Source of the DNA: a virus
DNA: 64,000 nt
Direction: 5' to 3' (one strand)
IMG/VR virus record: IMGVR_UViG_3300003878_000001
Location: 1 to 64,000 of that record
The notes beneath the pieces are model-generated. The model worked only from the letters and a program-made list of their open reading frames with translations. It made no database searches and was not told where the DNA came from. Shown here in pieces: positions 1 through 63,159 of the stretch (position 1 is its first letter; each line of letters begins with the position of its first letter). The translations under genes and the position numbers were made by a program.

Positions 1-293
1 AAATTCTAAAATTAATTTACAACAGTTTTTCTACGAGTTTTCAATGGTTTCAGCCGATTAGAGTTTATTGCTTACTCCTTAGCTTATCGAGATAGTGTAT
101 ATATTTATAATAATTTATACATATACAAGAGTAGAGTATTTAGTAATAGGTGTGACAGTTGTACCAATCTGTTGTTCTCTTGATGCGTAGCATGTTCTTT
201 GTAATTGGTCTGCTGAGCTTTGCTCACATAAAAAATAGACCCTCACCAATAGGCAAGAGTCTAAGGAGTGTATATTCAAAAGTTGTTACATTT

Positions 294-363: not shown

Positions 364-576
364 TTAACCGACCTCGTAGAGAGGCATCCAGAAATCTTGT
401 TCAAACTCTCGTCCAGTTGAACGCAATGAGGGAATTTGGAAACCCTTCAGATTTTCCTCAAGAAGAACTTTTTCTAGTCCCTCTAAAAGAGGTAGATGTT
501 CAGCCGCTTTCTGTCCCATGATTTTTTCAATCATCGTTTGAGACAATACTTTATAGCCTAGCGAATTAGTGACCAT
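364..576 (-). CDS. hypothetical protein (70 aa)
   Basis: Minus-strand ORF in the dominant gene direction. No motif recognised. Confidence 0.45.
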   Translation of the reverse strand: MVTNSLGYKVLSQTMIEKIMGQKAAEHLPLLEGLEKVLLEENLKGFQIPSLRSTGREFEQDFWMPLYEVG

Positions 577-673
577 TGATCCCTTTTTGTTTGTGTTCTC
601 TTATTGTAGCAAATGAATCTGTAAAAACATATGGCATATGAGAAAAGATTTGACCTATTGTTGAACAAATCTT

Positions 674-724
674 CTCGCATTACTATAGTTTATACTATCG
701 TTTTTTTAATGAAATAGTTAAACT
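674..724. repeat. quasi-palindromic intergenic repeat, copy R1 (GCGAG box at left end)
   Basis: CTCGCATTAC-TATAGTTTAT...TTTTTTTAATGAA-ATAGTTAAACT, the same building blocks as the copies at 8354, 34553, 34797, 45967, 53257 and 63070. It overlaps the 3' end of ORF 695-1057. Confidence 0.6.
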
Positions 725-7666: not shown

Positions 7667-7925
7667 GAAAATCAAACACATCAATTTCATCAGCTATAAA
7701 TTGTGATGTTTGTTGTATGGAGAGGTGACCTCCGTATCGTTGACCCATCTCTCTAAACATTGAATTTCCATTTGCATTTCTACATCTAGCTTCCGGCTCT
7801 AAATTAGTAGCACATTCTTGACCGTAGGCTCTAGCCATTTGATCTAAAGTCATCTTCCCATCAAAATGTTGCAATGTTCTGCCTAGAACAATTTGCATTT
7901 CACCGTGAGTCATCTCATTCTTCAT
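7653..7925 (-). CDS. hypothetical protein (90 aa)
   Basis: ATGA overlap with the upstream kinase-like gene. Its 3' end converges on 6767-7666 with a 14-nt overlap. Confidence 0.45.
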   Translation of the reverse strand: MKNEMTHGEMQIVLGRTLQHFDGKMTLDQMARAYGQECATNLEPEARCRNANGNSMFREMGQRYGGHLSIQQTSQFIADEIDVFDFPSGQ

Positions 7926-8350
7926 CTTAAAAATCTCCGTTTGATTACCTTTAATGATTCATCATCGTTTCGTCTCTCAGGATCAGGGAAAATAGTTGTA
8001 CCTGCTCCCCAATCAATTATCTCAACACCCTCCTTTGTTAACATTACATTGGTTCCACCTGATAAATCATTATGATGTAAACCATTGTCATTTGCCAATT
8101 GAACTTTCTCTTCCAATTCGTTATATTGTTCTTCAGTTAAACCTTGATTTTGCCAAACGGTTTTACCCTTGACTTTTCTCATGGTCAAAGAATTATGGCT
8201 GTGATCTAGGACTTCAGGAGAAATTCCTAGTTCAGCGGCTTCAATCTGACATTGAACCTCATTCTCTCCTAATTGTCCTATTTTCGTTACTGTCCCATCA
8301 CCTTGATCATATACTCTTCCATGACCACCTTTACCAATTGATTTCCACAT
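7922..8350 (-). CDS. minimal protein-kinase-like protein (142 aa, Bud32/RIO-like)
   Basis: G-loop IGKGGHGRVY, Lys in TVTKIG, catalytic loop HHNDLSGGTN, DFG-like IIDWG. Confidence 0.6.
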   Translation of the reverse strand: MWKSIGKGGHGRVYDQGDGTVTKIGQLGENEVQCQIEAAELGISPEVLDHSHNSLTMRKVKGKTVWQNQGLTEEQYNELEEKVQLANDNGLHHNDLSGGTNVMLTKEGVEIIDWGAGTTIFPDPERRNDDESLKVIKRRFLR

Positions 8351-8353
8351 ATT

Positions 8354-8400
8354 CTCGCATTACTATAGTTTATTTAATGAAAAAAGTAATAATAAACTAT
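8354..8400. repeat. quasi-palindromic intergenic repeat, copy R2
   Basis: CTCGCATTAC-TATAGTTTAT-TTAATGAAAAAAG-TAATAATAAACTAT. On the minus strand it reads ...AAACTATAGTAATGCGAGAAT directly before ATG 8350. Confidence 0.7.
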
Positions 8401-8404
8401 TACT

Positions 8405-9013
8405 TTAGAGAGCAGACAAAGGAGTAAAAGTGAACTTGGAACGGCATCGAGCACAGCAATAAGTCTTTTTGATTCCTTTGTAACGTCCACGAGTCGAAAC
8501 ATACCCATTAACTTTTCTTTCTGCAACCATAGAGGTTAAAGTAATAGGGTTAAGATGGTTAGTGCATTTGGAATTGGAACAACGGATAGAAGTTGTAGAG
8601 ACAGAATCAGATGAATTAATTCTTTTCAGAGCAACCAGTTCTTCATAGTTATGACGAGTGTTTGACTTGATGTTAGGGTATAAACCAGCAGCATTAAGGG
8701 CAATAGTATTGTAGTTATGAAAATACCGTCCGTGACCTGTTTTACCACGAAGGTCAAATTCTACACCATGAGCCATCTCATGAAATAAGCAGCTAAGAAA
8801 ATTGTTTACTGTTTTGAAATTAGAATTCATTCTGATTTGATGCTTTGCGGGTCTCATTGTCCCACCAGTAGTCTTGAGACGAGAATTAAATTCAATTGTG
8901 TATACAGAAAAATCAACGCTTCTGAATGTAGGTTCAAAAACCTCTTTAATCAATCTCTTAAGTACTGCCTTAAGTTGACGATTAGTAGTAGGAACCTTAG
9001 CAATCTGAAACAT
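8405..9013 (-). CDS. SprT-like zinc metalloprotease with C-terminal zinc ribbon
   Basis: HEMAHG (HExxH) after a SprT-like N-terminal region (RLKTTGGTM...HQIRMN). Cys clusters CSNSKC and CCARC lie near the C-terminus. Confidence 0.7.
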   Translation of the reverse strand: MFQIAKVPTTNRQLKAVLKRLIKEVFEPTFRSVDFSVYTIEFNSRLKTTGGTMRPAKHQIRMNSNFKTVNNFLSCLFHEMAHGVEFDLRGKTGHGRYFHNYNTIALNAAGLYPNIKSNTRHNYEELVALKRINSSDSVSTTSIRCSNSKCTNHLNPITLTSMVAERKVNGYVSTRGRYKGIKKTYCCARCRSKFTFTPLSAL

Positions 9014-9471: not shown

Positions 9472-9486
9472 TATGTTCTAATTATA
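9472..9486 (-). promoter_or_regulatory. promoter-like TATAATTAGAACATA box upstream of 9124-9453
   Basis: The minus strand reads TATAATTAGAACATAAGC followed by an SD sequence. It duplicates the box at 9031-9046. Confidence 0.4.
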
Positions 9487-11520: not shown

Positions 11521-12111
11521 CTATTCAGTATAAAAATATTCACTGTGTTTAGGGTTTCTAACTTTTCTGCTCATGTAGGATTTGTCTATCCCATGAGCAC
11601 TAGCAGCTTCTTTACAAGAATTAAAGGTACCAAGAGGAGTTGTTACTTTTTTCATCCTTGATTTACTCATTTGGTCTTTTGTTCCTTGGGAATGTGTTGC
11701 ACCATATCTAACACTGTTAGAACCAGTTTTACCAAAATGATAAGAATTTTCTCCTGAGTTAGCTTTACTAATTTTCTCCTTGGTCTGTTCTGTTCTAGGT
11801 ATGCCTTTGTTCCAGGCTATTAGTCCTGTTGTTCCTTCTCCACCATTTGTCATATTGGTTAAACAGCCTGTCTCCAGATCCAATCTACCATACAAATCAA
11901 TCAGCTCAATTTCTTTTTGGCAAGCTTCTTCTAATGTGAGATTACTGAATAGTATACGAATTTCAAATGTGTTGTTCCTTTCTGCTTTGACTCTCTTATT
12001 CGTACAATAAGGGTTTCTTCTGCATCTAAGGTTGGCTCGGTTTCTAGTGCCTAGCCCTACATAGAAAATCTTGTTATTATCAAACCATCCATATACTACT
12101 TTATCTCTCAT
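11521..12111 (-). CDS. GIY-YIG homing endonuclease (Seg/I-TevI-like) with NUMOD3 repeats and C-terminal HTH
   Basis: VVYGW...IFYVGLG, EIELI and NMTNGGEG. NUMOD3-like WNKGIPRTEQTKEKIS and HFGKTGSNS repeats. Paralogous to 22444-23031, 26741-27274 and 63425-64000. Confidence 0.85.
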   Translation of the reverse strand: MRDKVVYGWFDNNKIFYVGLGTRNRANLRCRRNPYCTNKRVKAERNNTFEIRILFSNLTLEEACQKEIELIDLYGRLDLETGCLTNMTNGGEGTTGLIAWNKGIPRTEQTKEKISKANSGENSYHFGKTGSNSVRYGATHSQGTKDQMSKSRMKKVTTPLGTFNSCKEAASAHGIDKSYMSRKVRNPKHSEYFYTE

Positions 12112-12136
12112 AGTTTAACTATTTAATGAAAAAACC
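12111..12136. repeat. half copy (R9) of the quasi-palindromic repeat abutting the GIY-YIG start codon
   Basis: The minus strand reads TTTTTTCATTAAATAGTTAAACT followed directly by ATG 12111, at the position where other copies carry the GTAATGCGA box. Confidence 0.5.
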
Positions 12137-22443: not shown

Positions 22444-23031
22444 TTAGTCAATGTAGTAGAATTCTAGGTTATTTTCATTTTGTACATATCGTTGCAAAGT
22501 AGAGTAGGAAAATGGCAAATTTTCAGATGCCTCTTTCATTGTTTCAAATTTTCCTAAAGGTGTCATCACTGCTTGCGTATGTAACTTCCCGCCTAAACCT
22601 CTTTCTTTTGCTCTTTGGCTCATCTTTGTTTTTGTCTCTGCTGTTTTTCTCTTTCCCTTTTTACCCTTAGATATTTGTTCTTTATGATGTTGACTCAAGG
22701 GGTTCCCCGATCTGAAATCAGAGATTTTTTGCTTTGCGGTGGATGTGTGTCTATATCCTGAGCAGCCATCTCCACCGTTTGTCATATTGGTTAAACATCC
22801 AGTACCTAAATCTAGTCTACCAAATTCAGAGATTAATTTACACTCCATATAACAGGCTTGATCCCAAGAAAGATTTGTGTATATTATTTTTACAGAGAAA
22901 GAGTTATTCTTTTCTGCCTTTCTCTTTTTGTTTAGACAATATCTATCTCTGTTTGAATAGGCTCTACTGGGTTTTCCTATTCCGACATAGAAAGGTGTAT
23001 CTCCATCTAACCATATGTATACAACATTCAT
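22444..23031 (-). CDS. GIY-YIG homing endonuclease
   Basis: VVYIWLDGDTPFYVGIG, CKLISEFGRLDLGTGCLTNMTNGGDG, NUMOD3-like repeats and a C-terminal HTH-like tail. Confidence 0.85.
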   Translation of the reverse strand: MNVVYIWLDGDTPFYVGIGKPSRAYSNRDRYCLNKKRKAEKNNSFSVKIIYTNLSWDQACYMECKLISEFGRLDLGTGCLTNMTNGGDGCSGYRHTSTAKQKISDFRSGNPLSQHHKEQISKGKKGKRKTAETKTKMSQRAKERGLGGKLHTQAVMTPLGKFETMKEASENLPFSYSTLQRYVQNENNLEFYYID

Positions 23032-26577: not shown

Positions 26578-26744
26578 TCTGTGTCAATCCTCAAGTCATT
26601 AACCAATGCTTCTAGAAAAGTCACGTCAGGCCCGCTGTTGAGCTTATTGAATGTGTTCATTTCTATCATTGTGTTGAAAGAGTGAACAAGGACAGATGCA
26701 ACAATAAACCCAATAATGTATTTCTTTTGAAAGTAGTTTCTCAT
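26574..26744 (-). CDS. small membrane-like protein (56 aa), below the ORF-track cutoff
   Basis: ATGA overlaps at both ends (26741-26744 and 26574-26577). Hydrophobic segment YIIGFIVASVLVHSF. Confidence 0.45.
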   Translation of the reverse strand: MRNYFQKKYIIGFIVASVLVHSFNTMIEMNTFNKLNSGPDVTFLEALVNDLRIDTE

Positions 26745-27274
26745 TTCATATCTCCTGTTTTATGCCAAAATGGATAGTTTTTTGAAGTCACCCTATTGTT
26801 TACACAGTTTCGACTGAGTTTCAATATTCTTGATGCTTCACTTATGCTATTAAATATACCATGAGGTGTTTGAATTTTTCCTTTACTCATCGATAAGGAG
26901 ATTTTGTCTTTGGTTTTTTGGTCTCTTGTTGTTCCTTGTTTGGCTTTTCTCATTTTTTCTTTAGAAAGTTCAGAATGAGTTCTACCATACATAGGGTGTA
27001 GATCTCCAGGCATACTGTTACCACCAAGGCAGTAATTGGTAAGTGTTGAATAATTATCCTTGATATATGCTTTCTCTCGCTTTATAGCTTGTTCTTTAGA
27101 CAATCCATCTTCAAGGATTTTTACTGAAAAAGTGTTCTTAAGTTGAGCATTGCGATACCTTTCCATGCACTCTTGATTGTTTCTAGACAGGTGATAGGCT
27201 CTTTCAGTTGTTCCCATTCCTATATAAAATGGGACATAAAGATCACACCATGCATATACCACATATTCACCCAT
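26741..27274 (-). CDS. GIY-YIG homing endonuclease
   Basis: YVVYAWCDLYVPFYIGMG and NUMOD3-like MYGRTHSELSKEKM. C-terminal HTH-like FNSISEASRILKLSRNCV. Confidence 0.8.
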   Translation of the reverse strand: MGEYVVYAWCDLYVPFYIGMGTTERAYHLSRNNQECMERYRNAQLKNTFSVKILEDGLSKEQAIKREKAYIKDNYSTLTNYCLGGNSMPGDLHPMYGRTHSELSKEKMRKAKQGTTRDQKTKDKISLSMSKGKIQTPHGIFNSISEASRILKLSRNCVNNRVTSKNYPFWHKTGDMK

Positions 27275-28590: not shown

Positions 28591-28663
28591 AATCCTTTAT
28601 CGCTATTGTTACTACATTATACTGAGAACTTCTATGTTAAGCCCTCAGTATAATTACTCGAAT

Positions 28664-33815: not shown

Positions 33816-33852
33816 ATTATAACCAAACCATTTTTCAAAAGGTACCCAGTAT
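33816..33852 (-). promoter_or_regulatory. promoter-like element: ATACTGGGTA box, 21-nt spacer, TATAAT
   Basis: Minus-strand ATACTGGGTA (33843-33852) and TATAAT (33816-33821). Confidence 0.5.
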
Positions 33853-33868: not shown

Positions 33869-34543
33869 TTATGTGTAACTAATATTGTGGTTTTCTTCAA
33901 ACCCATGAGGTAATAAGGGGAAATGCACCCGAGGATTTACACCAGTTTTCCACATTTTTTGAATTAGTTCCACAAACGAGATTTGAGAATCAGGATGGAT
34001 GCCAATTAGCCACCCGTACTCTAAAGGAAGTTTTGCTTCTAATCGATAAATGCCAGATTCTAAAGTTGTTACTGTTCCAAATCTTTCATAAGTTATTTGA
34101 GTATCAATAAACTGATTAATTAGTTTATCTTCCAAAGGTTTCAAACTGTTCTGAGCATAGCGTTTGGCTCCAAACCCTTGACTAGAAAATGCACAAGTAG
34201 AACATGTATCAATAACAACCCATTCATCACATTTCTGTTCCTCTATTCTATAATCCGTTAAAGAGATAGAGCAAATGTCATTATAAATCTGTTCTTTGAC
34301 TCTCTCAATTCTTTCATTATAATCAGTAGCTATCAAACTGTATTTTTCAAAAGTTTTCTGACGAAATTCAACACTAACATGTTTTGATATTTTGTTTGAA
34401 TCCCATTTTTTGTTCTTTGGTTTAAGCCTCTTACCCTCTGCCAATAGTTCAGCATCAAATTTAGCTTGAAGTTGTTCCAACTTATAGTAACTATTGATTT
34501 TTGTATATCTTGTGTACAGCCGCTTGAGTTTTCTCGGTGTCAT
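33869..34543 (-). CDS. hypothetical protein (224 aa)
   Basis: The ATG is preceded by repeat copy R3. Confidence 0.5.
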   Translation of the reverse strand: MTPRKLKRLYTRYTKINSYYKLEQLQAKFDAELLAEGKRLKPKNKKWDSNKISKHVSVEFRQKTFEKYSLIATDYNERIERVKEQIYNDICSISLTDYRIEEQKCDEWVVIDTCSTCAFSSQGFGAKRYAQNSLKPLEDKLINQFIDTQITYERFGTVTTLESGIYRLEAKLPLEYGWLIGIHPDSQISFVELIQKMWKTGVNPRVHFPLLPHGFEENHNISYT

Positions 34544-34552
34544 TCTAACTTT

Positions 34553-34601
34553 CTCGCATTACTATAGTTTATATAATCACTTTTTTAATAAAATAAAGTA
34601 T
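34553..34601. repeat. quasi-palindromic intergenic repeat, copy R3 (GCGAG box at left end)
   Basis: CTCGCATTAC-TATAGTTTATATAATCA-CTTTTTTAATAAA-ATAAAGTAT. Confidence 0.65.
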
Positions 34602-34780
34602 CAATTGAGAGAAGACAAGTAAATCCTCTCAAATAGAATAGACTCTTTGAAATTCACTAACCAATATAAACCCTGTTGATCTCTATGTCTCCAAACCACT
34701 CCTAAATCTTCCTCATGCCTAACTAATAATCCTTGCTTTAAGGCATATCGTATGGATCGCATTTGATCTGTTGTTATCAT
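34601..34780 (-). CDS. hypothetical protein (59 aa) flanked by inverted repeat copies R3 and R4
   Basis: ATG 34780 with a GAGAGAAA upstream. The track start at 34795 is TTG. Confidence 0.45.
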   Translation of the reverse strand: MITTDQMRSIRYALKQGLLVRHEEDLGVVWRHRDQQGLYWLVNFKESILFERIYLSSLN

Positions 34781-34796
34781 TTTCGTTTCTCTCAAG

Positions 34797-34845
34797 TATA
34801 TAGTTTATTACTTTTTTGATTAAATAGTTAAACTGTAATGCGATG
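34797..34845. repeat. quasi-palindromic intergenic repeat, copy R4 (GCGA box at right end)
   Basis: TATATAGTTTATTA-CTTTTTTGATTAA-ATAGTTAAACT-GTAATGCGATG, the near-exact reverse complement of copy R5. Confidence 0.7.
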
Positions 34846-34853
34846 ATTTTGAA

Positions 34854-35715: not shown

Positions 35716-35794
35716 TTTTCAGATGTATCCTTTTCGCTAAACCTATTATAACATGGTCAACTATATTAATTTCTCAGTATAATTGACCAAATAT

Positions 35795-43351: not shown

Positions 43352-43412
43352 AGTATTGTTTAATTGGATACTCTCATTATATTGCTCTATAGTTTATATA
43401 GTGAGAGTAAAT

Positions 43413-45712: not shown

Positions 45713-45963
45713 TTCATCCTCATATATTCAAATACAATATCGTCAAACATAGAACTTTGACAATCCATCATTTTCCTTAGAAATCCAAGTTTAACTTCTG
45801 TAGAAATCTCGGGATCAGTATCCATCTGGTTTAATGCCAATTGCATCAATTCCATTTTACCTGATCCTCCTGCTCTAAAACATAGGTGAGGATATTTAGG
45901 GGTGATTATGTCTTCAGGATAATCTGAAACCTCATCCCATTTGTAATAGATTTTATCTTTCAT
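45709..45963 (-). CDS. hypothetical protein (84 aa)
   Basis: The ATG is directly preceded by repeat copy R5 (...GTAATGCGAGAAT-ATG). Confidence 0.5.
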   Translation of the reverse strand: MKDKIYYKWDEVSDYPEDIITPKYPHLCFRAGGSGKMELMQLALNQMDTDPEISTEVKLGFLRKMMDCQSSMFDDIVFEYMRMN

Positions 45964-45966
45964 ATT

Positions 45967-46013
45967 CTCGCATTACAGTTTAACTATTTAATCAAAAAAG
46001 TAATAAACTATAG
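45967..46013. repeat. quasi-palindromic intergenic repeat, copy R5
   Basis: CTCGCATTAC-AGTTTAACTAT-TTAATCAAAAAAG-TAATAAACTATAG. Confidence 0.7.
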
Positions 46014-46017
46014 TTAG

Positions 46018-46194
46018 TTACCCTGCATAGATAGTAAGCTGACTATTTCGCTTCAATTGGCGAAGATGCATAGCATAAGTTGCTTGTGAAGCATCTCGTT
46101 GAATGGCGTCATAATCAGATTGTTTCATTCTTGTATTCTTGACTGCTTGAACGTTTGCACCAATTTTAGTTAATCGGTTTGAGGATTTTGCCAT
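46018..46194 (-). CDS. possible small protein (58 aa), below the ORF-track cutoff
   Basis: ATG 46194 shares one base with the upstream TAA (TAATG). Translates as MAKSSNRLTKIGANVQAVKNTRMKQSDYDAIQRDASQATYAMHLRQLKRNSQLTIYAG. Confidence 0.4.
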   Translation of the reverse strand: MAKSSNRLTKIGANVQAVKNTRMKQSDYDAIQRDASQATYAMHLRQLKRNSQLTIYAG

Positions 46195-53226: not shown

Positions 53227-53256
53227 AGTATTCCTTGAATTTTGTTTATTACTACT

Positions 53257-53305
53257 TATAGTTTATTATCACTTTTTTCATTAAATAAACTATAAGTATG
53301 CGATG
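53257..53305. repeat. quasi-palindromic intergenic repeat, copy R6 (GCGA box at right end)
   Basis: TTATAGTTTATTATCA-CTTTTTTCATTAA-ATAAACTATAA-GTATGCGATGA. It equals copy R2 read on the opposite strand. Confidence 0.7.
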
Positions 53306-53320
53306 ATATTTACAATAGGT

Positions 53321-60627: not shown

Positions 60628-60709
60628 CGGAAGAAGGAGGAATTGAACCCCAACCTAAAGATCGATCTGTTTAGCAAACAGCCCTTGAAACCATTCAAGA
60701 TCATCTTCC
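60628..60709 (-). tRNA. tRNA-Ser (anticodon GCU), long variable arm
   Basis: Hand fold: GGAAGAT/TTCTTCC (6 bp plus a mismatch), loop TTGCTAA, ~14-nt variable arm, T loop TTCAATT, G73. No encoded CCA. Confidence 0.65.
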
Positions 60710-60710
60710 A

Positions 60711-60748
60711 ATAGTTTAATTTATTGAAAAACAGTGAACAAACTATAT
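60711..60748. repeat. divergent copy (R8) of the quasi-palindromic repeat, lacking the GCGA box
   Basis: ATAGTTTAAT-TTATTGAAAAACAG-TGAACAAACTATA, immediately upstream of tRNA-Ser(GCU). Confidence 0.45.
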
Positions 60749-62344: not shown

Positions 62345-62595
62345 ATCTTTATTCCTTGACTCTATACCGAGTATACTTTAATAAGAGTGTAATAGGTTCA
62401 GTGATATTGCTGAAATCCGGTTTGTTGGGTAACAAGGATAACCGGAAAATTCCCCGGCTCATCTAGGCAGCAACTAGGCTACGCTTACGAGCGAAAGGCA
62501 CAATGTTATTAGCAGTTGTGTTTAGTCGATTGATCAACAGTTAAGTCTCATCTTCTACCAGTCGAAACCAAGTAATACCCCGTGAGAGAAGAGAT
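62345..62595 (-). ncRNA. ORF-free, hairpin-dense ~250-nt segment downstream of the HNH gene (candidate stable RNA; strand uncertain)
   Basis: No long ORF. Visibly G+C-richer than its surroundings. Stems include TCCGGTT...AACCGGA enclosing TTGTT-ACCC-AACAA. It shares AACCGGAAAAnTCnCCGG with 55362-55703. Confidence 0.3.
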
Positions 62596-62916
62596 TTATT
62601 TATTCCAGGGAGTATGACCGTTCTGAAATCTTTTACCATGAGGAACAGAAATTCTGCCCTTTTGATAAGCGTCTTTCATATTGTCTGAATTAGTCCCTAG
62701 AAAGAGATGTTCAGGATTGACACATTTAGGATTGTCGCAATGATGGCATACCATTAAAGATTCGTCAAATTCGCCATTGGCTAGCCTGTAAGCTACTCTA
62801 TGAGCGGATTGGACTTTTCCGTTTACTTTGAAGGCACCATAAGATCCCCTGAAAGATGCTTGCCATTCGTGACAGCCTGTTGATGTTTCTTGAACTTTGT
62901 CGTAAAATCTCTTCAT
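62596..62916 (-). CDS. HNH endonuclease (HNH_3 type)
   Basis: AHRVAYRLANGEFDESLMVCHHCDNPKCVNPEHLFLGTNSDNMKD. Confidence 0.85.
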   Translation of the reverse strand: MKRFYDKVQETSTGCHEWQASFRGSYGAFKVNGKVQSAHRVAYRLANGEFDESLMVCHHCDNPKCVNPEHLFLGTNSDNMKDAYQKGRISVPHGKRFQNGHTPWNK

Positions 62917-62922
62917 AGTGTA

Positions 62923-62960
62923 TGGAGTATAGGGGAGTCGAACCCCTGTCCTGTTAGTTA
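62923..62960 (-). pseudogene. isolated tRNA 3' half (T arm plus acceptor strand) without a matching 5' half
   Basis: AGGGG-TTCGACT-CCCCT followed by ATACTCC-A. No GGAGTAT-type 5' strand was found within 250 nt upstream. Confidence 0.45.
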
Positions 62961-63069
62961 AGTATTCAACCTCTCAACCTATGACTATAATAACCAACCA
63001 ATTCATAAGATGTATCCGTATAATCAACCAATTGACTTCTTGCCACCTATTCAAATATCATCATGGTTA

Positions 63070-63120
63070 CATAGTTTATTTAATGAAAAAAGTGATAAAT
63101 AAAAGTATAAGTGTATGATG
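63070..63120. repeat. quasi-palindromic intergenic repeat, copy R7
   Basis: ACATAGTTTAT-TTAATGAAAAAAG-TGATAAATAAAAGTATAA-GTGTATGATG. Confidence 0.6.
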
Positions 63121-63131
63121 ATATTTAATGA

Positions 63132-63159
63132 GAAAAACCGCCTGAAAAGGTTCAAGCGG
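63132..63159 (-). terminator. Rho-independent terminator after the basic-peptide gene
   Basis: Minus strand CCGCTTGAA-CCTT-TTCAGGCGG (9 bp; the single G-U is a wobble only on this strand), followed by TTTTTCTC. Confidence 0.7.

Follow-up and report, generated by a model that had tools for sequence, protein, structure and literature searches.

The genome of an uncultured phage, represented by an IMG/VR virus record of 119,165 bp, carries a real and non-random family of AT-rich, palindromic elements of 50-80 bp that are dispersed over its intergenic spaces in both orientations. The stretch of DNA analyzed here, termed the window, comprises the initial 64 kb of this record. We tentatively regard the family as a lineage-specific intergenic promoter/hairpin 'punctuation' cassette that may also act as a recombination junction. 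This reading is preferred because the elements abut stop codons, fill gaps between genes exactly, lie in the early region, are retained at an orthologous site, evolve in concert and are replaced by members of another subfamily when the neighboring gene changes. A role as promoter or hairpin, like any protein partner, is what we infer from the sequence.

The phage genome has a G+C content of 35%, carries most of its genes on the minus strand and contains a tRNA array at about 51-79 kb. Encoded are a ribonucleotide reductase (RNR), thymidylate synthase, topoisomerase II, primase, RNA ligase and a family A DNA polymerase. The phage is a distant relative of cyanophage S-TIM5, whose capsid protein shares 38.7% identity with its own, and is not T4-like. 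Neither megablast with 5 kb nor tblastn with a 715-aa protein returned a match among cultured phages, protein clusters revealed no near-identical strains, and an IMG/VR scan with a capsid-protein peptide gave no match. Apart from those of the phage's own relatives, the nearest RNA ligases come from cyanobacteria. A further hint at the host is a permuted tmRNA match in the window (62463-62971, minus strand), since marine picocyanobacteria and alphaproteobacteria typically have such two-piece tmRNAs. The match scores 57 bits against an Rfam gathering score of 47 and covers the full model length across 509 nt, with an HNH endonuclease ORF (62596..62916) inside its span; it is absent from the ARAGORN output. 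The 'inverted terminal repeat' of the record amounts to 22 bp only (AAATTCTAAAATTAATTTACAA; window 1-22 and genome 119144-119165). Since the contig of one relative joins both ends of the source phage, with the DNA polymerase beside the RNR region, the ends of the record probably arose in the assembly of a circularly permuted genome. The first 65 residues of the phage DNA polymerase (113833..116757) recur in a 70-aa ORF close to the left end (window 364-576, minus strand); the duplication (364-576 versus genome 116564-116793) takes in the upstream TGCTACAAT promoter and shows 80% protein and 70% DNA identity. In one relative (L170/L251, SRR27352940_26867) the RNR large subunit bears an intein (1181 aa versus 674 aa here), and a 676-aa Hint/LAGLIDADG protein is encoded near the structural genes.

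An nhmmer profile made from the seven copies in the window and run on the whole 119,165-bp genome returned eight strong copies (E-values of 1e-12 to 4e-5). They comprise the seven copies named in the preliminary description (R1-R7), all of which are present, and an additional one, R8 (72916-72979, minus strand), outside the window. The profile matches of R4, R6 and R7 cover 34790-34852, 53251-53312 and 63065-63127, all on the plus strand. Three weaker full copies (R9, R10 and R11) and two half copies complete the set. R9 (105236-105284), about 80% like R7, lies outside the window as well; R10 (97983-98036) is the sole DNA between two genes, and R11 (~60700-60748, minus strand) is degenerate and immediately precedes a weak tRNA match within the tRNA array. 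Three partial copies had been put forward earlier. Those at 12111-12136 and 60711-60748 are real, the latter being R11, while the third, around 43388, has only one arm in common with the family: this sequence (CTATATAAACTATAGAG, 43380..43400, no strand assigned) lies within another promoter-bearing palindrome and is not a full member. The 8-mer TAATGCGA occurs six times in the genome, each time inside a copy. Sites reading TATAGTTTA are intergenic in 12 of 18 cases, with intergenic DNA making up 9% of the genome, and TATAGTTTAT with at most one mismatch occurs 28 times versus 11.5 +/- 3.4 times in shuffled sequences. The genome-wide motif search proposed in the preliminary description thus yielded an eighth strong copy and an intergenic enrichment, and the profile search bore out a dispersed family in two orientations. 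The copies are 0.2-27 kb apart, face both ways and have genes between them, in agreement with the earlier statement that they do not form a CRISPR array. All strong copies fall within 0-73 kb, the long early/non-structural region of small genes. At gathering score Rfam assigns no family to the copies, its matches in the window being tRNAs and the permuted tmRNA only; blastn with the consensus element produced chance-level matches only, and so did pattern scans of IMG/VR and JGI metagenomes, as checked with the family profile and by eye. Protein look-ups led to two related metagenomic contigs carrying the family, L248 (with copies L248a and L248b) and L165.

Arm pairing was tabulated directly, copy by copy, and every copy proved to have inverted arms, 7-18 nt in length. 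A full half-site has the sequence AAATATCATCGCATTAC-TATAGTTTAT, and the full form is a palindrome of ~75-80 bp in which this half-site is followed by a 16-22-nt loop with an A6/T6 run and by ATAAACTATA-GTAATGCGATGATATTT. The GTAATGCGA 'box', initially taken for a separate flanking element, is actually the outer part of the palindrome arm, as the tabulation of copies and relatives reveals. This outer part is retained on both sides in R7 and L248b and on one side in most copies. R7 (63052..63136, no strand assigned) is the full two-box palindrome AAATATCATCAT...ATGATGATATTT. The loop measures 16 nt in R2, R6, L248a and L248b and 13-26 nt in the remaining copies; its A6/T6 run occurs in either polarity relative to the box and to the genes. 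Three subfamilies can be distinguished: A (R4, R5 and R8), with arms of 7-9 nt only, B (R2, R6 and R7) and C (R1 and R3). The claims that R4 and R5 as well as R2 and R6 are reverse complements of each other proved correct (45/45 and 36/37 matching positions, respectively). In R4, R6, R7 and R9 the best or intact arm is antisense to the genes. A rule by which GCGAG runs along the genes and GCGATGAT antisense to them, also part of the preliminary description, fails beyond the window: R8 reads GCGATGATTTT along the genes and L248b reads GCGAGAA antisense.

The constant neighbor of the elements is the stop codon of the upstream gene. In 10 of 10 copies it lies at most 4 nt from the element start, with an overlap in some, and in R1 (666..719, minus strand; E=1.3e-9), which carries an intact arm and the box ...ATAAACTATAGTAATGCGAG along the gene direction, the stop codon at 695-697 is part of the element. 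On the other side, anything between 1 and 95 nt separates the element from the next start codon. The elements are therefore associated with stop codons more than with start codons. Adjacency to start codons, which had been emphasized before, holds for R2, R5 and R10 and is not the constant feature of the family. R2 (8346..8409, minus strand; arms of 10 nt, loop of 16 nt) occupies the entire 54-nt gap from an SprT-like gene to a RIO-kinase-like gene, and R5 (45960..46020, minus strand) likewise occupies a 54-nt gap. In both cases GCGAGAAT adjoins the ATG, at 8350 and 45963, respectively, just as described, and the source's own gene caller chose the same starts. Nothing but the element separates the two genes at R2, R5 and R10, where it stops 1-3 nt short of an ATG. 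The gene before R2 (8405-9013, minus strand) is the SprT-like one; the gene after it (7922-8350, minus strand) encodes a 142-aa RIO/protein-kinase-like protein that is kept in a relative with 79% capsid identity. R3 (34545..34610, minus strand), with its box along the genes and 7-9 nt before the ATG at 34543, and R4 (34790..34853, plus strand), with its box antisense to the genes, flank a 59-aa ORF (34601..34780). R6 (53251..53320, plus strand) combines perfect 15-nt arms and a 16-nt loop with an intact antisense box. R7 is situated between a canonical terminator on one side and a TTATACGG-type promoter on the other, upstream of the permuted tmRNA match. One half copy, TTTTTTCATTAAATAGTTAAACT (12112..12136, minus strand), adjoins the ATG of a GIY-YIG/NUMOD3 endonuclease gene (11521..12111), with an ordinary GTTATAAT promoter ~50 nt upstream; the second adjoins the ATG of the gene at 87910..88509. 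Constant abutment on a stop codon combined with a variable distance to the start codon is the layout of a stem-loop followed by a promoter. A Shine-Dalgarno sequence is absent at R2, R3, R5 and R10. This was rejected as a special feature of the family because the core is present in only 37% of all genes. Conserved mini-ORFs starting from ATGAT(A/T)TTT were likewise dismissed, as they range from 3 to 13 or more codons and share no conserved peptide.

Comparison with the relatives provides evidence for both retention and exchange. L248, an ENA contig of 17.2 kb, is syntenic with about 60 to 42 kb of the source genome. L248a is the orthologous counterpart of R6: it is flanked by orthologues of R6's neighbors, the proteins being 53% and 41% identical in amino acids, and has retained the core within arms that are perfect 18-mers. 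The arm extensions differ, ACTTATAG/CTATAAGT in R6 and TGTTCTATAG/CTATAGAACA in L248a, yet each pair is self-complementary, the arm changes between the two copies being compensatory. L248b occupies the position of R5 but belongs to subfamily B and has the opposite orientation; it is followed by a methyltransferase gene without the 84-aa ORF of the source phage. The Logan contig L165 (9.9 kb) starts inside a subfamily-C-like copy at the same locus as R5, with a GIY-YIG endonuclease gene downstream. In three phages, the site upstream of the DUF4942 methyltransferase gene is thus occupied by subfamily A, B or C, the corresponding downstream content being an 84-aa ORF, nothing and a GIY-YIG endonuclease gene. 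Within the source genome, R4, R5 and R8 are 100% identical over 45-56 nt (R5 and R4 over 45 nt, R5 and R8 over 52 nt). These comparisons demonstrate that gene conversion between sites keeps copies alike and that related phages differ in gene cassettes at the junction occupied by at least one copy; the evidence for cassette exchange comes from a single locus. An involvement in recombination, raised in the preliminary description, is thereby substantiated. Its suggestion that copies might mark rearrangement boundaries fits one of the two loci compared, the R5 site, where the neighbors differ in three phages, but not the R6 site, which is conserved. In the 79%-capsid-identity relative (L163, L170 and L251) the ~48 kb examined, which include the R1 and R2 positions, contain no copy, and neither do the parts examined of a 64% relative (L250). 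At the R2 position the 79% relative has an ordinary promoter, AAACCTATATAATTAAGG, ahead of the orthologous kinase-like gene.

Their position directly after stop codons, together with the compensatory arm changes, raises the question of whether the elements act as RNA. They could be intercistronic hairpins, that is RNase III or RNase E processing sites or protective 3'-end stem-loops of early transcripts, and by analogy with the RNase III sites of phage T7 such hairpins might separate and stabilize segments of a long early transcript. Complete palindromes do form strong stems of -15 to -25 kcal/mol, and G-U pairs restricted to one strand in subfamily A and R9 also point in this direction. Folding energies better than those of shuffled sequences are found in R6, R7, L248a and L248b only (z -3 to -7), whereas R1-R5 and R8 have z near 0, so that half of the copies fold no better than shuffled sequence. 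Furthermore, the polarity of the loop with respect to the sense strand varies, the better-folding strand is antisense to the genes in R4 and R9, and RNase III needs stems longer than 7-10 A-U pairs. All in all, a role confined to RNA hairpins appears improbable. Ordinary, possibly bidirectional intrinsic transcription terminators would also be expected at stop codons, and full copies are flanked by A-rich sequence on the left and T-rich sequence on the right (AAATAT...ATATTT). A terminator scan found none at the copies, however, with results at chance level. Their A-T rich stems and loops of 13-26 nt contrast with the G+C-rich stem and 3-8-nt loop of an intrinsic terminator, most sense-strand 3' flanks lack a U-tract, and canonical G+C-rich terminators exist elsewhere in the phage, one of them directly upstream of R7. 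We consider it very improbable that the elements are terminators of this kind. A motif of a different type, CGGTTA(T/C)TTAT, was observed directly after canonical terminators, e.g. at ~35480, 38200 and 14100.

For the promoter component of the proposed cassette, as for the phage-specific promoter/operator suggested earlier, the signals are mixed. Scans for sigma-70-type -35/-10 pairs over R2, R3/R4 and R6 gave 9/12 matches only, at the frequency found in shuffles; a sense-strand match is present in R3 only, the family alignment contains no conserved or consistent -35, and the key A or T is missing from several hexamers on the sense side (TGTAAT, TATAAG, TATATA). On the other hand, the intact arm AAACTATAGTAAT resembles the ordinary -10 context of the phage, AAACTATAAT, as well as the promoter of the more distant relative at the R2 position, AAACCTATATAAT, and the arm AAACTATAGT/AAACTATAAG matches ordinary -10 contexts such as TTAAACTATAATTAG at 9483. 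Inverted repeats also enclose many other promoters of the phage and many TATAAT boxes. Separate ordinary promoters follow R1, R7 and R8, indicating that the element is not needed as a promoter there. A second class of promoters consists of TTATACTG(G/A)G or TTATACGG at ~20-22 nt upstream of TATAAT-like boxes, with intergenic examples at 322-331, 28640-28663, 33843-33852, 35760-35794 and 63000-63040.

As we picture the cassette, which immediately follows the stop codon of a gene in the early region, its well-preserved arm (AAACTATAGTAAT plus GCGAG...) would act as a -10-only promoter and short leader for whatever follows, and the two arms would pair in read-through RNA, or extrude in DNA, and so mark the end of the upstream message. 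Being palindromic, the unit could work, or at least survive, in either orientation, and copies would overwrite one another. Several observations count against this: -35/-10 pairs occur at chance level, the best arm is antisense in four copies, the hairpins of R1-R5 and R8 have z near 0, separate promoters follow R1, R7 and R8, and R9 as well as a palindrome with the same arms lie in coding sequence. Promoters specific for a T7-type RNA polymerase or a phage sigma factor were rejected because neither is encoded, a search for T7-type RNA polymerase and sigma-70 region 2 in the phage having found none. NtcA, Pho-box and LexA-like host sites were rejected for unsuitable spacing, assessed by eye only. 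The earlier suggestions of a packaging-protein site or a homing site found no specific support. As for homing, the phage possesses six paralogous free-standing endonuclease genes of ~190 aa each with 29-46% mutual identity (window 11521-12111, 22444-23031, 26741-27274 and 63425-64021; genome 109952-110518 and 117595-118161). The paralog tested (11521..12111) matches NUMOD3, its GIY-YIG match lying below the family cut-off, and further paralogs occupy other sites in relatives (L165 191..787 and 8063..8698). That the elements are targets of these endonucleases was rejected, since only one of the six genome paralogs, plus the L165 paralog, adjoins a copy.

The two exceptions to the intergenic location deserve attention. 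R9 lies in frame within a sulfotransferase ORF (PF13469), where it encodes YPQISSYFLSLFNQKNDKSIIL; an insertion comparable to the RPE of Rickettsia was rejected because the ORF aligns to the CurM sulfotransferase without net insertion. A perfect 16-19-nt inverted repeat at 105703-105746 combines the family arms CTCTATAGTTTATTGT...ACAATAAACTATAGAG with a different loop and lies inside the ORF of a Dam-like D12 methyltransferase, encoding SIVYCDIPYSNTINYR including the catalytic DIPY motif. The in-frame position of R9 could be attributed to a selfish or neutral palindromic repeat (REP-, RPE- or MITE-like), spread and homogenized by recombination or template switching and tolerated only in gaps, without any regulatory role. 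Identical copies at distant sites in both orientations, the replacement of one subfamily by another at an orthologous site, the break of the L165 assembly at a copy and the lack of any copy in the ~48 kb examined of the more distant relative, R1 and R2 positions included, agree with such an origin. Nevertheless, this explanation is doubtful. The phage genome has no match to a Y1 (RAYT) transposase (PF01797), which was detected in control genomes and may be host-encoded, and target-site duplications are not visible in the flanks. Nor does R9 represent a net insertion with respect to CurM; the R6 copy has been kept at the same site although the flanking proteins are only 41-53% identical, the copies are few and placement is strictly at stop codons.

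The maintenance of R9 in an undisrupted sulfotransferase ORF and of the same-arm perfect palindrome in the methyltransferase ORF suggests selection at the DNA level that is independent of intergenic context. This would suit an array of operator- or 'stoperator'-like sites through which one dimeric regulator, of phage or host, controls the whole early region. Such an array is unlikely in our view, as is the accompanying notion that the arms are half-sites and the A-tract loop bends the DNA. Its merits lie in the half-site sequence CGCATTAC-TATAGTTTAT, which is conserved beyond mere pairing across subfamilies and relatives, in the loop of exactly 16 nt in R2, R6, L248a and L248b, and in the symmetry of the site, which fits an orientation-free placement. 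Against it speak the spacing of the arms, which ranges from 13 to 26 nt among copies, the short arms of subfamily A (7-9 nt), the presence of only one full half-site in most copies and the lack of a candidate regulator, HU/IHF and sigma factors being absent from the phage genome. Moreover, a fixed protein specificity would not call for complementarity in the arm extensions, which differ between the orthologous copies yet pair in each. In a more speculative version, which we consider quite unlikely, the palindromes would be recognition sites of a phage or host factor that reads the hairpin, the cruciform or the symmetric duplex and controls the early region, while the element copies itself between gaps without a transposase and even in frame into coding sequence. 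If this were true, the family would be a phage-borne, self-homogenizing counterpart of bacterial REP elements with a regulatory job.

REP/BIME elements of enterobacteria and RPE of Rickettsia are imperfect palindromes that follow stop codons in both orientations and form concertedly evolving subfamilies; RPE copies lie in frame within genes. The phage family shares the imperfect stop-adjacent palindromes, both orientations and the concerted evolution of subfamilies, and R9 is in frame like RPE. It differs from both in numbering about a dozen copies in a phage instead of hundreds in a chromosome, in a genome without RAYT/Y1, and in that the in-frame copy R9 is not a net insertion. Coming back to the cassette that we favor, the family is most likely a looser relative of the PeSL cassettes of T4 and not a new kind of system. 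PeSL and PmSL are the promoter-early and promoter-middle stem-loop cassettes of T4-type phages (Arbiol et al. 2010, PMC2839356; Comeau et al. 2014, PMC4122927). As in PeSLs, short conserved composite repeats fill gaps between small genes of early or hyperplastic regions (PMC2839356, PMC4122927), and copies alike enough to recombine adjoin gene-content differences between related phages. The PeSL order of a stem-loop beside the upstream gene, then a promoter-like -10 and a start codon, may be present as well: all copies have arms of 7-18 nt, which fold better than shuffles in R6, R7, L248a and L248b only. The location in a variable early region near indels is also shared, with R5 differing and R6 conserved at the two loci compared. 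Unlike in PeSLs, there is no sigma-70 -35/N17/-10 pair above chance, and a Shine-Dalgarno sequence and start codon at the 3' end in one orientation are replaced by distances of 1-95 nt in both orientations. Here a single long palindrome makes up the whole unit, with the -10-like box inside an arm.

A second point of comparison is offered by the SAS and ESAS repeats of Cluster K mycobacteriophages (Pope et al. 2011, PMC3203893), the function of which was still unverified in 2025 (PMC12699233). SAS (GGGATAGGAGCCC) is a Shine-Dalgarno-like, asymmetric box of 13 bp, situated 3-8 bp upstream of start codons and almost always facing the same way; ESAS is a pair of imperfect ~17-bp inverted repeats with a spacer of 4-13 bp just upstream of this box (PMC3203893). 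The phage family likewise resides mainly in the non-structural half of the genome and is conserved in related phages before unrelated genes, and it may correspond to these repeats in its asymmetric box a few nucleotides before start codons with an imperfect inverted-repeat pair ahead of it. Its sequence is unrelated to GGGATAGGAGCCC, though, it occurs in both orientations, and only 3 of ~11 full copies adjoin a start codon. Inverted repeats lie directly upstream of the box, the spacers measuring 13-26 nt and the box itself belonging to an arm; the constant neighbor, in addition, is the upstream stop codon. The family would function like PeSL and ESAS/SAS but belongs to neither, since a sigma-70 pair is lacking, the orientation varies and start codons lie at no fixed distance.

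Short conserved intergenic cassettes are among the few mechanisms proposed for the swapping of small accessory genes in large lytic phages and have so far been documented mainly in T4-type phages. The family described here displays cassette behavior, i.e. concerted evolution, retention at an orthologous site and replacement of subfamilies along with a change of neighboring genes, in the unrelated and uncultured S-TIM5-like lineage and in an orientation-free, palindromic form. If a promoter/hairpin role were confirmed, the elements would help to delineate transcription units in a phage group that lacks expression data and could serve as a simple marker of module boundaries in its metagenomic relatives.
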